Source: Eledone cirrhosa (taxonomy: Eukaryota). Taken from it: 64,000 nt of DNA. Made by a program: the position numbers and the translations under genes. The notes beneath the pieces are model-generated. The model saw nothing but the letters and a program-made list of their open reading frames with translations, did no database searches and was not told where the DNA came from. The stretch is from positions 147,436,001-147,500,000 of the forward strand of contig OZ024743.1 in the NCBI GenBank assembly GCA_964016885.1. Direction: 5' to 3'. Positions 33,171 through 38,789 of the stretch are shown piece by piece (positions within the stretch are counted from its first letter, which is position 1; the number at the start of each line of letters is the position of its first letter).

Positions 33171-35128
33171 CAAAGAAATGGAATTGTTTATTTATCATTG
33201 TGTGAAGTATAAAATATGAATTCTGTTAATGTTACTGAATTCATAAATCTATGAATATTCAATATTTTCATCTATTTCATTTTGAAAATTGCAATATGTT
33301 TTCGTAAAATTACTGTTTCATTGCTAGGAAATTATTCCAAATTAAATTTAATATATATTAGAGTAATTTACTCAGCAAAAAAGGAAGCTAGTACGTGGTG
33401 TCTTATTCTACGAGATATAGCAGTCAAATCCCACTGAAACCATAACTTATTTTGATAGATATATCTCTAGATATGCATTGACTATAATCAAAATGGAAGC
33501 GTTCTGGCTGGAATGCATTTGACTGGCGCTTACTTGATTTTAATCTTGCATAACAACAGTAATATTATATTTGTAGTTTCCTTCAATATTTCTCTATCAC
33601 TTGCATATTTCTGTATCACTTGGGCCAAATTTCGCTCTCAGACTTAATCTCCCAGCACGGATATAGAGTTTGAATCTTCTTTCGTCTGAGTCAATTGAAG
33701 CAAACTGAGTAATGTGAGATAAAACTAAAAGAGCACAACCTAGCAATCCGAGTATTATGGTTTAAGCAGATGTAGAAGGAAATTAGATTTCAATATTTTA
33801 ACCTCACAGCCATTTTACATCTGACAAAAATACAAAATATACTGGACATCCTTCTCATTTAAATACACACCCGCATCTGCTTTTGTTACCAATTTTACAA
33901 AATCCTTTTATCCAACCTTCATACATACATTCATAATATAAACATACATATATACATGCATACATAAATACACACACATACGTACATAATTGCTGCAAAC
34001 TCTGCTAAGAGTACTGCAATCGCTTGTAAGTTTATAGAGTTTGGTGGACTTTTAGGCTACGGCCAGTCACACAAACCTGTAACAGACCCTGAACTAGCAA
34101 TGCCTGTGGTTTGAAGGTTTTTTTAAGTGGGGAAAGGCCTTGCACTCGACCAATCCCATTCTCTGGGCATCGCGAACACTACCCGAAAAGGAGAACTGGT
34201 CAACATCATCGGATGCTTCCGAAGCCGCAGGTCATTTAACAGAATTTCTCTCTCCTAGAAAGGTGTTGTGGCAACAACTGAGGGCCTTTCACTCGCAGGT
34301 GAAAAAAAAGCGTTCTATTTCGATGGACATTGACTCAGCTAAGTTCCTTCGCCATTTGCCTAGTCTTGTATTTCATCTTGCAGGGTGTCCAAATATCCCC
34401 CACCTTACCAAGCTAGCTTGGTGGGGTTGCCGGTGTAGTCGCCGACGATCCGACCAAGAGACAGCTTGTACTGGATTACCAGTAGCACCAGAGAGCGACC
34501 TGGCACATACATAATTACATACATACATACTTAAATCGCGCCTCTCTGAGTGTTATTGTTGATCTGTCACTTTTAAGATGTAAGCTCAATAATCATTATC
34601 AGATTGTCTGTTATCACTTAATCCAAAACTGAAGCCGTTGCCAGCTGTCTTCTCAATCGTCTTGCAGTTCTATTTTCATTGTTCTATTTTCTCAAACATG
34701 TCTGCAACGTTCTCATTATCATGACCTTTGATCAACAGCTCTCACTAGAAAGGTTAACAGTAACCTCCCCGAGCCTTTCCTTCGCATTCACGTATGCACG
34801 CACATGAATTTGGTGTGTGAATACACACACACACACATATATATATATATAAACATATATATACATATATATATATACATATATATACATATATATACAT
34901 ATATACATATATATACATATATATATATATATATATATAGATAATTTAATATATCAACTAACATAAGCGCACAGATGCACGCCCATGCCAGCAAATACAC
35001 AGGTTATGTCATAGTACCTAGGTGGTTCAATGCAGGAGAATGCAGAACAATAATATAAAGGACGTAAAATAAAAAAATATTTTTTTAAAAAAAAATTTAA
35101 AAAAAATTTTTTTCTTACTTAAATTTTC

Positions 35129-35210
35129 ACTCCAACTAATTAGTTTCTGCAATGGGATAAAGACAGTTACGTAATTCAACTGTCGAGAATTCATTGCGTC
35201 ATCAGGAAGT
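35129..35210 (-). ncRNA. Type I hammerhead ribozyme (family D, unit 1)
   Basis: Reverse complement of 36247-36328. Confidence 0.8.
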
Positions 35211-35688
35211 CTATTCTCAGTTAAGTCTCCAGGCAATGCGCGGACACTGGCGGCTCATATAAAAATAATAATAATTCGGTAGATCGAACAGCTTGCGAGG
35301 ACTGAATTCTATGTACCGAAATTCTCACTGCTTCAAGTCAAATGGCCGATTCTAAAGAATCAATCACGTGACACAGAGGCTAGTTAGAAGGAATGGGATG
35401 GTAAGATGACTGACGCCTACTAACACCCCAAAAAAAAATTTTTTTTAGAAGTGGTTTTGACAAGTTTGCTCGACAAATCAGTGATTTGGAGATAAATATA
35501 GATAATTTAATATATCAACTAACATAAGCGCACAGATGCACGCCCATGCCAGCAAATACACAGGTTATGTCATAGTACCTAGGTGGTTCAATGCAGGAGA
35601 ATGCAGAACAATAATATAAAGGACGTAAAATAAAAAAATATTTTTTTAAAAAAAATTAAAAAAAAATTTTTTTCTTACTTAAATTTTC

Positions 35689-35770
35689 ACTCCAACTAAT
35701 TAGTTTCTGCAATGGGATAAAGACAGTTACGTAATTCAACTGTCGAGAATTCATTGCGTCATCAGGAAGT
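35689..35770 (-). ncRNA. Type I hammerhead ribozyme (family D, unit 2)
   Basis: Identical copy exactly 560 bp from 35129-35210. Confidence 0.8.
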
Positions 35771-36246
35771 CTATTCTCAGTTTTTAAAATTTTTTTTAAA
35801 TTTTTTTTAAAAAAATATTTTTTTATTTTACGTCCTTTATATTATTGTTCTGCATTCTCCTGCATTGAACCACCTAGGTACTATGACATAACCTGTGTAT
35901 TTGCTGGCATGGGCGTGCATCTGTGCGCTTATGTTAGTTGATATATTAAATTATCTATATTTATCTCCAAATCACTGATTTGTCGAGCAAACTTGTCAAA
36001 ACCACTTCTAAAAAAAATTTTTTTTTTGGGGTGTTAGTAGGCGTCAGTCATCTTACCATCCCATTCCTTCTAACTAGCCTCTGTGTCACGTGATTGATTC
36101 TTTAGAATCGGCCATTTGACTTGAAGCAGTGAGAATTTCGGTACATAGAATTCAGTCCTCGCAAGCTGTTCGATCTACCGAATTATTATTATTTTTATAT
36201 GAGCCGCCAGTGTCCGCGCATTGCCTGGAGACTTAACTGAGAATAG

Positions 36247-36328
36247 ACTTCCTGATGACGCAATGAATTCTCGACAGTTGAATTACGTAACTGTCTTTAT
36301 CCCATTGCAGAAACTAATTAGTTGGAGT
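36247..36328 (+). ncRNA. Type I hammerhead ribozyme (family D, right arm)
   Basis: acttc-CTGATGA-c gcaatg..[branched insert]..cattgc a-GAAA-ctaattag-TT-ggagt. Confidence 0.82.
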
Positions 36329-38789
36329 GAAAATTTAAGTAAGAAAAAAATTTTTTTTAAATTTTTTTTAAAAAAATATTTTTTTATTTTACGTCCTTTA
36401 TATATATATATATATATATATATATATATATATATATATGTGTGTGTGTGTGTGTGTGTGTGTGTGTGTGTGTGTGTGTGTGTGTGTGTGTGTGTGTGTG
36501 TGAATATGTGTGCAGTATACGTTTCTGTATATATATATAAGAATATACCAGATATAAAAGACAAGAAATAAGGAAGAACATGCAAATACGTTAGAAATTA
36601 CAATCAGATTATCCGCGAGGAAAAGAAGAAACGTTCAGTGGGGCAAATCCATATCAGTGAAGAGATTATGATTCTAAGCTTTTCACATTAGCTGCAAGCA
36701 TTTCAGTGCTATGTCTGGTTATATGACACTGAAAGATTCAGCCACCTTACTTAGTTGACTGACTGATCTGTCACAATATTATTGTCTGATTGTCACCTCA
36801 ACGGATAGATTTACATTATATTTCAACCTTAACACTTTCGGGATTTCCTTTTTGTCTTTTACTCTATTTATTCATTCATTTTTGTTGTACTATTCAGTTT
36901 ATATTCGCTATGAAATGGTCACTAAATAATAGGCTATCGATATCTTCTATCTTTTATATTTTATTTATATTTGATAAATATGTTTTTCAAGTGCGTATGA
37001 CCTTACACATAACCTTATGAATAATATCATCAACTTTTCTACTCTTTTAAAATATATTATTTCAGTTGATATGTTGAATGTAGCGGAGGCTTAAAACCAG
37101 TATTTCTAATACGATATTGAAGTATCAATTTTCTCGACAACAACCAGAGTTGGTGTCTATATTTCAGTTCATAATTATTGGCTCTGGTAAAATTTGACAA
37201 ATAAAAGTAAGTATATACGAATTTACAACATTTCATTGATGTAAACTAATTGAGTTGTTCTGAGTTTCTCACTATATAATATATTCTTGCTAATTTCATA
37301 TATCATACTTTGAAAGAGAATAATCCAATCACTCAAAAACACCCTCGCACACATCTGTGCGACGGTCACATGCACCGTGGCCATGCTCTTTGCTGTTACA
37401 TATGTCTCAGTTATGTTCTTGAAGCAGACCTGGCAATCTCTAAAAGCCCAAACAGGGAGTACCATGAAAAGGAGAGCCCCAAATCGAGAAGAAATGAGGC
37501 AAAATGGAGAGAGTTTACATAATGAAATGTATACCGATTTTCACAAGAGAAGACATCTCTCACTCACCCCAAATTGGTTGAGAAATCTCCCCGTTGTACG
37601 AGGAGAGTTGACAGGTCTGTTGAAGTAATGAAGATAACTAACCAGGGAAGGCCTTAACGTTTGTTTGATAAACTAAATAAAGGATAGGAGAAATCAATCA
37701 AGTTATTAAAATATTCAACAAGTATTTAAACGATTGAATAATTGATAAGAATGAGATTTAATATTTGAAAAGTAGAAAAAAGCTGAAATCATAATGATCA
37801 CTTTTTATAAAATTTGATATTTAGAAAAAACAGCCTGAAAAAATAGCTCGTTATTATTCAAAACTTCGTCATTTTGACAAAAACGATTTCATAGGGAATG
37901 CACGTTAATCCACATGGCTGTGGGTCTCTCGTTTGCCTGCAATGCTGAATTTAATTAATCTTTTATATATAGCCAAGTGATGGGGGGGGGGGGGGGGTCG
38001 AGATGAGATTCACTATATTTAAATCAAATGTTCAAGGGTTTTTATATGACTTATACATTGTGTGTGTGAAACCAATGGTAGGTTTGAAAATCTCAGACAA
38101 ATTTTCGAATGAAACTTGAAAAATACTAGAACTCATCGGATGGTATAAGAAATGGTAGAAACAATGATTGCCGAAATAAAACACAGACATACCCTACTCT
38201 AGATGTTTACGACACACAAATTCATTAATTATCTTTAGTTTTTTCTTGCGTAAACAGACATGAAAAGCAAATTGTCTGGAGAGGGAAGTGAATCAGCGTT
38301 GCATACTAGACAGACACACATCAATTTACCGGTGATTATGTTGCTTACAGAAGTGATGTATGACATTATGTTTTCAAACCAATGATGAATCCTTTGCATG
38401 GACACCCGACTTGCACAGCTATATCTGTCTCGAATCACATCTTACTTCTTTAGATAAGGAAATTACACAATATAGTCTTGCATGCACCATGTGAAGATGA
38501 TGGTAACACGTGTAACTTTGACAATAGGTCTACTCGATCAAGAAACAAACAAGAACTAGAAATAAAGCTTGGTGCACTCGGGCGCCGCAGGTTCAGTCTC
38601 TTGAACTGTCACAGAGAGGACGCAATATGGATTTCGGCTCGACATGCTAGGAATATAATGGTTTGAATTATAATTAATCAATTCATTATACACGGAATCC
38701 TTGAAATAATACCAATAACGCAATAAAAATTAAATAAAATAGAATAAGGAAGATAATAGAGAATGGAATACTCACTCATATCAGTTAGT

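Follow-up and report, generated by a model that had tools for sequence, protein, structure and literature searches.

How does a repeat that encodes no protein come to stand as two opposed arms inside a TA microsatellite, and what form of RNA, if any, was copied to put it there? The question is raised by one locus (A) in the window, which is the whole 64-kb stretch of DNA analysed here. Locus A is a young copy of an ORF-less 560-base repeat with a predicted hammerhead, and consists of 1.51 units on the minus strand (845 nt) joined head to head to 1.10 units on the plus strand (615 nt), with TA repeats on both sides (Table 1). A preliminary description had given 1.5 and 1.1 units, minus-strand hammerheads exactly 560 bp apart, near-identical copies without an ORF, and outer ends that stop where the unit itself reads TATA; measurement bears out all of these. 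The two minus-strand cores lie at exactly that distance, no ATG ORF exceeds 32 aa and no stop-free stretch 52 aa in the six frames of the doubled unit, and overlapping copies show one to four differences in each of four pairwise comparisons, all of them in A/T homopolymer runs or at the TA end. Both outer ends are at TATAT, a TA microhomology of 5 nt with the target. Relative to the predicted cut, the left arm has its 3' end at +196 nt and its 5' end 88 nt before the cut, while the right arm has its 3' end at +77 nt and its 5' end 23 nt past the cut position. A target-site duplication at this locus would be hidden within (TA)n.

Table 1. Features of locus A and of three further loci in the window (positions are those of the whole stretch).
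Feature	Position	Strand	Remarks
Locus B, older copy from the family of A	12424..13119		531-nt unit, 70% identity to A
Locus C, unrelated 593-nt hammerhead family	15348..17027		Same anatomy as A
Locus D, decayed 5'-truncated Hydra-like Penelope element	17577..19826	+	Between inverted hammerhead-bearing ends
A, left target flank	34835..34937		(TA)n interrupted by TACA
A, left arm, 1.51 units, hammerhead sense on minus strand	34938..35782	-	The 'tailed' arm, 3' end at +196 nt
A, predicted type I hammerhead motif 2	35129..35210	-	Core 35205, predicted cut nucleotide (H17) 35134
A, predicted cut-to-cut monomer, 560 nt, ORF-less	35134..35693	-	Circular fold -132.6 kcal/mol
A, predicted type I hammerhead motif 1	35689..35770	-	Core 35765, predicted H17 35694
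A, head-to-head junction, both arms 5'-truncated	35783..35785		TTT, low complexity
A, right arm, 1.10 units	35786..36400	+	3' end at +77 nt
A, predicted type I hammerhead motif 3	36247..36328	+	Core 36252, predicted H17 36323
A, right target flank	36401..36502		(TA)n then (TG)32

The case for a hammerhead comes from a descriptor scan, which gave nine motifs in the 64-kb window against a mean of 0.08 (maximum 1) in 50 shuffles. The motifs of locus A have the CUGAUGA and GAAA boxes, an NUH site, three helices and an open stem I, as expected of type I; motif 2 has a palindromic stem III and an extended stem II, and stem II shows two double-sided changes (covariation) between A and B. An extra nucleotide before stem II and the palindromic stem III are shared with the hammerheads of Penelope-like elements (PLEs). 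The hammerhead of the 560-nt unit may be active. For the isolated motif, the lowest-energy fold (-17.9 kcal/mol) is a different one from the predicted hammerhead (-14.0 kcal/mol). The palindrome duplex, at -10.8 kcal/mol, suggests a dimer form. Rfam gave no hit at the gathering threshold across the whole window, and the 15 hits obtained at E<=10 included no hammerhead family, probably because of the long extension of stem II; one hit, to MIR841 (65 bits against a gathering threshold of 200), is a product of the inversion and was discarded. The exact 23-nt hammerhead pattern had no hits in metagenome contigs.

The plan of locus A recurs in its neighborhood. Units arranged in tandem, head to head or both, and lying within or next to (TA)n, are seen at loci A, B, C, D, H and F (the last in two copies), which represent five unrelated families within 64 kb; D-left and H-left do not adjoin a (TA)n run. 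Locus B has 1.21 and 0.1 units head to head and locus C has 1.16 and 1.68, the latter with ends at +80 and +243 from the predicted cut, and the junctions carry microhomology of 3 nt in B and 4 nt in C. A one-sided tail measures 119 nt in A, 163 nt in C and about 20 nt in H.

If the outer ends were permuted around the unit – as the preliminary description had proposed, reading them as the footprint of a circle and naming fixed termini among copies as the finding that would speak against this – then related copies should end at different places. They do not, in the few copies compared. The right end of A is the homologous nucleotide of the right end of B, a relative only 70% identical, and F1 and F2, the two copies of family F, have both ends in common; the argument from permuted ends to a circle is thus not supported as it stood. 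On the strength of these two pairs, a fixed position of the outer ends seems a better description than random permutation. At A, B, C, D, E, F and H alike, proximal ends fall between +52 and +105 past the predicted cut (post hoc chance of such clustering about 0.004 for the informative loci A, B and C), and the recurrent ends fit two internal reverse-transcription start sites, at +77 and +196. Conservation between A and B is 82% across the segment spanning the two putative start sites and 64% in mid-unit. Five of the six arm ends of A, B and C also overlap TA in the target (by 5, 5, 4, 3 and 6 nt), an overlap of at least 5 nt being expected if the unit were broken at 4.5% of its positions. The 560-nt unit has no more than five TA-type sites at least 4 nt long, and under microhomology priming alone the identity of A-right and B-right would be expected about one time in five. 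The sixth arm end, B-left, does not fall on a TA site of its own unit and follows a 17-nt inverted copy of the neighboring F end.

Independent DNA runs show the 560 family to be abundant (1050 contigs in run X1, contig depths not being equal to copy number, and 6338 reads in run X22), and 59 reads cross the unit boundary head to tail. The read comparison covered positions 35223-35812 in four of the 24 runs listed, RNA entries and those with a small share (<=0.17) being left out; no RNA run containing the 560-nt unit was found, the RNA entries having a share of 0.03. Piles of read ends in X22, compared with entries at repeats excluded, were rejected as evidence on termini because the six listed, out of eleven, all sit on AATT sites, the run being a reduced-representation library.

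We consider it likely that A is a young two-armed retrozyme insertion, written into the TA microsatellite in trans by a PLE reverse transcriptase-endonuclease. A (TA)n-targeting PLE protein, plausibly of Hydra or Naiad type, would cut both strands of the microsatellite. Each DNA end would then anneal to a short UAUAU in the RNA and serve as primer for a cDNA, one at the proximal site (+77 from the cut) and the other at the distal site (+196), the use of both sites giving the one-sided tail. Each cDNA would read across one hammerhead junction or two, implying a template that was continuous at those points, and end joining would finally link the two 5'-truncated cDNAs head to head. What survives of the earlier interpretation is that reverse transcription recently placed the repeat in (TA)n, starting from both ends at TA microhomology and copying a template continuous across the hammerhead; what is not supported, in the form given, is the reading of permuted ends as a circle's footprint. 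Against a PLE as the agent, no autonomous partner sharing the sequence of the 560-nt unit was found, and the fixed ends are known from two pairs. A tail of roughly 120-160 nt and the apparent TA-primed starts are unusual for a PLE insertion.

Since the template ran through predicted cut sites it may have been a circle; an uncut linear multimer fits too, and locus A by itself does not settle the matter. That a PLE copied a 560-nt circle closed by ligation, going round it 1.1-1.5 times from each of the two fixed starts, is possible, but it is not the outcome we would expect. The circle model for PLE and retrozyme mobilisation has been in print since 2014 (PMC4209133) and 2020 (PMC7229834), and mussel retrozymes accumulate mainly as circles. 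In A, B and C five of six arms exceed one unit and three of six cross two cut sites, a lineage passed on through linear forms only would be expected to grow shorter, and monomers fold better than shuffles (z=-3.6 and -5.3; the former is the circular fold of the 560-nt monomer, -132.6 kcal/mol, against 60 shuffles). Both arms of A are of one haplotype, yet only 1227 of the 6338 X22 reads, from a species that may differ from that of the window, are at least 99% alike; and where C is covered three- or four-fold, every difference is private to one copy. Each of these points, the phasing of variants in C included, equally fits a homogeneous linear multimer, and two of the six inner ends stop 7 and 23 nt past the cut position, as would run-off from a cut 5' end (a post hoc observation). 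An uncut or partly cut linear multimer is slightly favored over the circle. Cut linear monomers copied in succession, the reverse transcriptase leaving each at its 5' end and resuming at the 3' end of another, would account for three of six inner ends lying within 25 nt of the cut position (post hoc p about 0.01). A clustering of 5' ends 8-12 nt upstream of the core suits at most one of the six arms (A-left, at 17 nt). Template jumps by reverse transcriptases often leave scars, and all three read-through joints at A are base-perfect, with no bases gained or lost, which makes this version improbable.

Two explanations dispense with an RNA template. Repair of a (TA)n break by microhomology-mediated strand invasion and template switching from a genomic array, or trimming of the ends by TA slippage or deletion, would also give TA overlap at the ends, and the 17-nt inverted copy of adjacent DNA at B-left speaks for it too. 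Against this, outer ends are always 3' in the hammerhead sense (in the hammerhead families compared), a polarity for which DNA copying gives no reason, and one end keeps its distance from the cut in unrelated families. We regard an event at the DNA level as very unlikely. Least credible is an artefact of assembly or of long-read fold-back. The arms of A are identical but for homopolymers, and the junction, masked in the read comparison, was confirmed in no run; against this, the arms are offset rather than mirror images, the junction has no centred fold-back palindrome (longest half-palindrome 4 nt), the right end is the family-specific one, and older loci keep the same plan with arms diverged by 2-9%.

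Insertion in trans by a PLE calls for a helper, and locus D is a candidate for the type. Its GIY-YIG remnant (about 18067-18510) was identified solely by a full HMMER scan, with 1321 relatives at E<=0.001; Pfam found nothing at cutoff on the 71-aa remnant and matched GIY-YIG in only 2 of 11 scanned relatives, and a word-indexed protein search found none of four candidates. A CxCx5C linker is common to all nine aligned relatives, three of which carry, further upstream, reverse transcriptase motifs in agreement with the Hydra alignment of PMC8557442; because of this linker an initial Neptune-type identity was dropped in favor of Hydra. D belongs to a different family from the 560-nt unit, and PLE profile and tblastn matches in the window are confined to about 18.0-18.5 kb and 20.3-20.6 kb.

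These loci bear on which enzyme moves animal retrozymes, and on whether PLE tandems come from circles or from linear multimers. The window is dense in small units that lack an ORF and appear to bear the PLE integration signature in full, so that one genome offers many natural experiments, and mapping ends on the circularised unit would address two-site initiation, TA-paired priming and the form of the template. A broader reading would make such loci footprints of ribozyme-made circles, the product of microhomology-primed, double-ended rolling-circle retrotransposition in which a dimeric Penelope-type enzyme primes twice on one RNA molecule from two fixed UA-rich sites paired to cut (TA)n, leaving 120-160-nt tails in several unrelated families of one genome; taken whole, we find it doubtful.

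Among known systems, L1 twin priming offers one model of inversion: a cDNA is primed at either target end, and microhomology helps to unite the two products head to head. The arms of A are likewise joined head to head and, as proposed here, primed from two target ends. In L1, however, the outer end of the inverted arm abuts the inner end of the other arm on the RNA, whereas the arm ends of A overlap by 173 nt or lie about 390 nt apart, and classical contiguous twin priming was rejected.

Like animal non-LTR retrozymes (Cervera and de la Pena 2020, PMC7229834; Li et al., bioRxiv 10.64898/2026.07.22.740005), A consists of ORF-less, low-GC tandem units with a type I hammerhead motif in each and a self-paired monomer. 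For such retrozymes mobilisation by PLEs through circles has been proposed, and circles have been shown, whereas a circle of the A unit is putative. It differs in unit length (560 nt against a usual 150-450, although the discussion in PMC7229834 allows 150 to >1000 nt), in having only 1.1-1.5 units per arm, and in its extended, branched stem II. No description of a head-to-head inversion with a two-site tail was found for retrozymes in the parts of the literature consulted. Searches of mainly open-access literature found no paper joining Penelope-like elements, hammerhead, microhomology and inversion, and none on topic for retrozymes with twin priming or inversion and Penelope; the one cephalopod paper searched held no mention of a hammerhead.

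Comparable too are the insertions of EN+ PLEs (Craig et al. 2021, PMC8557442; Arkhipova et al. 2013, PMC3846280), which have a partial tandem with an inverted 5'-truncated copy at the 5' end, a tail on one side (typically 30-40 nt), a (TA)n target in Hydra and Naiad, and a hammerhead near the 3' end; Naiads show the insertion signature without a canonical hammerhead, and trans-mobilisation by terminal sequences is documented for PLEs in the same papers. Locus A shares the partial tandem, inverted 5'-truncated copy, (TA)n target and, as predicted, the 3' hammerhead; it has an extension on one side, but differs in the length of this tail (119-163 nt, with C) and in lacking the reverse transcriptase and GIY-YIG ORF of an autonomous PLE. 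A motif search of a supplement in the PLE literature found no match to its hammerhead. The sole PLE studied in vitro, purified PAc (Anolis Poseidon; Frangieh et al. 2024, PMC11167929), begins copying at RNA positions that lack homology to the target, which by analogy would count against TA-paired priming; that mode, if true, departs from PAc, as does the 3-6 nt TA overlap at five of six ends. PAc cuts and extends both strands at AT-rich targets, does not need hammerhead cleavage, and sets the extent of the tail by its two internal RNA start sites, which lie some 85 nt or further past the hammerhead cut. The anatomy of A fits such double-strand extension from two putative internal starts at an AT-rich target.

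Locus A, a two-armed insertion of an ORF-less 560-nt hammerhead repeat, is bordered on both sides by (TA)n microsatellites. Its arms diverge from each other in hammerhead sense and are separated by TTT; no ORF longer than 32 aa was found in it. The preliminary description of 34938-36400 proved accurate with respect to arms, strands, unit counts, (TA)n flanks, near-identical copies and absence of an ORF. Differences between unit copies are confined to homopolymer runs: thus, either the insertion is very young or the differences are read errors.

Among 24 listed sequencing runs, five contain half or more of the sequence words, and four were mapped on one 560-nt unit plus junction (with the junction masked); no listed RNA run exceeded a share of 0.03. 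Organism A contains the family in abundance and in diverse forms, with 1050 contigs in run X1 and 6338 reads in run X22 (1227 of them at least 99% alike), and 59 reads from six starts cross the head-to-tail unit boundary. In runs X4 and X7 one contig each matches almost exactly, over 375 and 195 nt, respectively. Piles of read ends were rejected as evidence on termini, since they fall on AATT sites. A scan of metagenome contigs for an exact 23-nt pattern of the hammerhead gave no match.

Comparison of the window against itself showed that the two-armed plan of locus A recurs elsewhere.

Features of locus A and of other loci in the window (nt; units are those of the respective repeat)
Feature	Position	Strand	Description
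Locus A, left arm	35782->34938	-	845 nt, 1.51 units of 560
Locus A, right arm	35786->36400	+	615 nt, 1.10 units of 560
Locus B	12424-13119		70% identical to A; 1.21 + 0.1 units
Locus C	15348-17027		593-nt unit unrelated to A; 1.16 + 1.68 units
Locus D	17577-19826		inverted hammerhead-bearing ends around decayed GIY-YIG endonuclease
PLE remnant	20265-20567		C-terminal endonuclease piece, second and weaker trace of a PLE (tblastn E=0.001; profile E ~1e-5)
Locus E	55364-55469		single-armed
Locus E'	29090-29191		single-armed
Family F	11999-12392		first copy
Family F	59114-59287		second copy
Centre of inverted F element	12156-12240		five perfect 17-nt repeats at head-to-head junction
F/B boundary	12376-12425		(TA)n; last 17 nt of F recur inverted before B arm
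Locus H	3883-4563 (within 3878-4563)		inverted element, minimal hammerhead, tail ~20 nt
Element H	27026-27200		second 3' fragment
Hammerhead-like motif	3395-3452	-	further motif, at 3452
SINE array	52309-53547		204-nt tRNA-like SINE, 6.1 tandem copies, 98% alike
LINE-like ORF remnants	98-730, 1667-2700, 27451-28047		RT and zinc-finger motifs judged by eye

The SINE, also dispersed in the window, forms an array that starts and stops at the same AT-rich point of its unit; no hammerhead was found in the array, which may be another multimeric insertion. Microsatellites and SINE of the window suggest an octopod host.

The predicted hammerhead in each 560-nt unit consists of CUGAUGA, one additional base, stem II (6 bp, lengthened through an internal loop plus a 7-bp hairpin), GAAA, palindromic stem III, a GUU site and stem I of 5 bp. 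It has no match in Rfam, and fold prediction for the isolated motif places the catalytic fold 3.9 kcal/mol above the predicted minimum. A descriptor scan of the window recovered nine hammerhead motifs against 0.08 per shuffle (50 shuffles). Relative to locus A, stem II is kept in locus B via two double-sided changes, and the outer hairpin is kept though its sequence differs; the core of B carries a U4C change. In locus C, the core shows a compensated U3-A8 pair together with a long stem II, and a 7-nt deletion affects one of the three full motifs.

A link to Penelope-like elements (PLEs) comes from locus D. A search with the 71-aa open stretch of D yielded 1321 relatives at E<=0.001; a CxCx5C linker is common to all nine that were aligned, and three of the nine have upstream RT motifs resembling the Hydra clade. 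Section 11 of PMC8557442 defines this PLE group by a CxCx5C linker, canonical hammerheads and (TA)n targets, and its supplement includes, for octopus, a Hydra family as well as Naiads (another PLE group) preferring (TA)n. Judged by its sequence, locus D is a decayed, Hydra-like Penelope element. An Asn-rich stretch precedes its endonuclease remnant, and ~1 kb of AT-rich sequence extends from the ORF to the terminal repeat.

Outer (3') arm ends, counted from the predicted hammerhead cut, lie at +77 and +196 in A, +80 and +243 in C, +61 and +61 in D, +105 and +127 in H, +52 in F (the other arm being longer) and +56 in E. The right end of B (+61 in B coordinates) is the nucleotide homologous to +77 of A, and the two F copies have both ends in common. 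A and B are 82% conserved in the stretch holding both start sites vs. 64% mid-unit, a pattern that would be expected of a protein-binding region. From end positions, shared ends and this conservation, the outer ends appear to mark two favoured sites of initiation, few copies being compared. For the three loci exceeding one unit (A, B and C), a proximal end within +50 to +105 has a chance of ~0.004, the interval having been picked post hoc; the coincidence of the A and B right ends alone is about 1-in-5 under free microhomology priming (five TA sites in the unit). Of the six arm ends in A, B and C, five show TA overlaps, of 5, 5, 4, 3 and 6 nt (background fractions 0.045, 0.045, 0.089, 0.185 and 0.012, respectively). 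In the few copies compared, the homologous right ends of A and B and the shared ends of F speak against the circular permutation of ends proposed earlier. The sixth end (B-left) begins with 17 nt copied from the adjoining F end: the inverted stretch may stem from folding back onto the flanking DNA or from switching of the template from one RNA family to another.

PMC8557442, PMC3846280 and PMC8969392 describe as hallmarks of PLEs partial tandems, an inverted copy with 5' truncation and a tail of 30-40 nt on one side. PMC11167929 describes a PLE protein (a predicted dimer) that cuts and extends both strands of AT-rich DNA and initiates at two internal RNA sites, which set the tail; hammerhead cleavage is dispensable for its activity. 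On this basis we read locus A as the probable product of double-ended target-primed reverse transcription, with a non-autonomous RNA as template: one end of the DNA would initiate at +77, its counterpart at +196, and head-to-head joining of both truncated cDNAs would follow. Junction microhomology amounts to 3 nt at B and 4 nt at C, with none clear at A.

Two predicted cut sites lie within the left arm of A and one within the right arm, so the template RNA was continuous at these points. Such continuity, and the frequency of arms longer than one unit (five of six), would follow from a circle – the published model (PMC4209133, PMC7229834) – and likewise from a linear multimer left uncut or cut only in part. 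The multimer also agrees with the in vitro PLE result and with Naiads without canonical hammerhead, and we place it slightly ahead of the circle. Variant phasing in locus C gave only private differences, compatible with both forms alike. Inner (5') ends of the A, B and C arms lie at -88, +23, +46, +7, -16 and -164 relative to a cut; their loose grouping near the ribozyme motif may reflect stalling or run-off.

Locus A, with its predicted hammerhead activity, belongs as a genuine and young copy to the animal retrozyme / non-autonomous PLE class. Two details of the loci described here, unusually long tails and apparent TA-paired priming, were not found in the (mostly non-subscription) literature searched on retrozymes and PLEs. 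A 2026 preprint (bioRxiv 10.64898/2026.07.22.740005) ties retrozymes to PLEs via co-occurrence and phylogeny; the loci described here contribute integration-footprint evidence to that link. An extra base before stem II and a palindromic stem III are reported in PMC4209133 for PLE hammerheads working as dimers, and the motif of locus A resembles these in both features.
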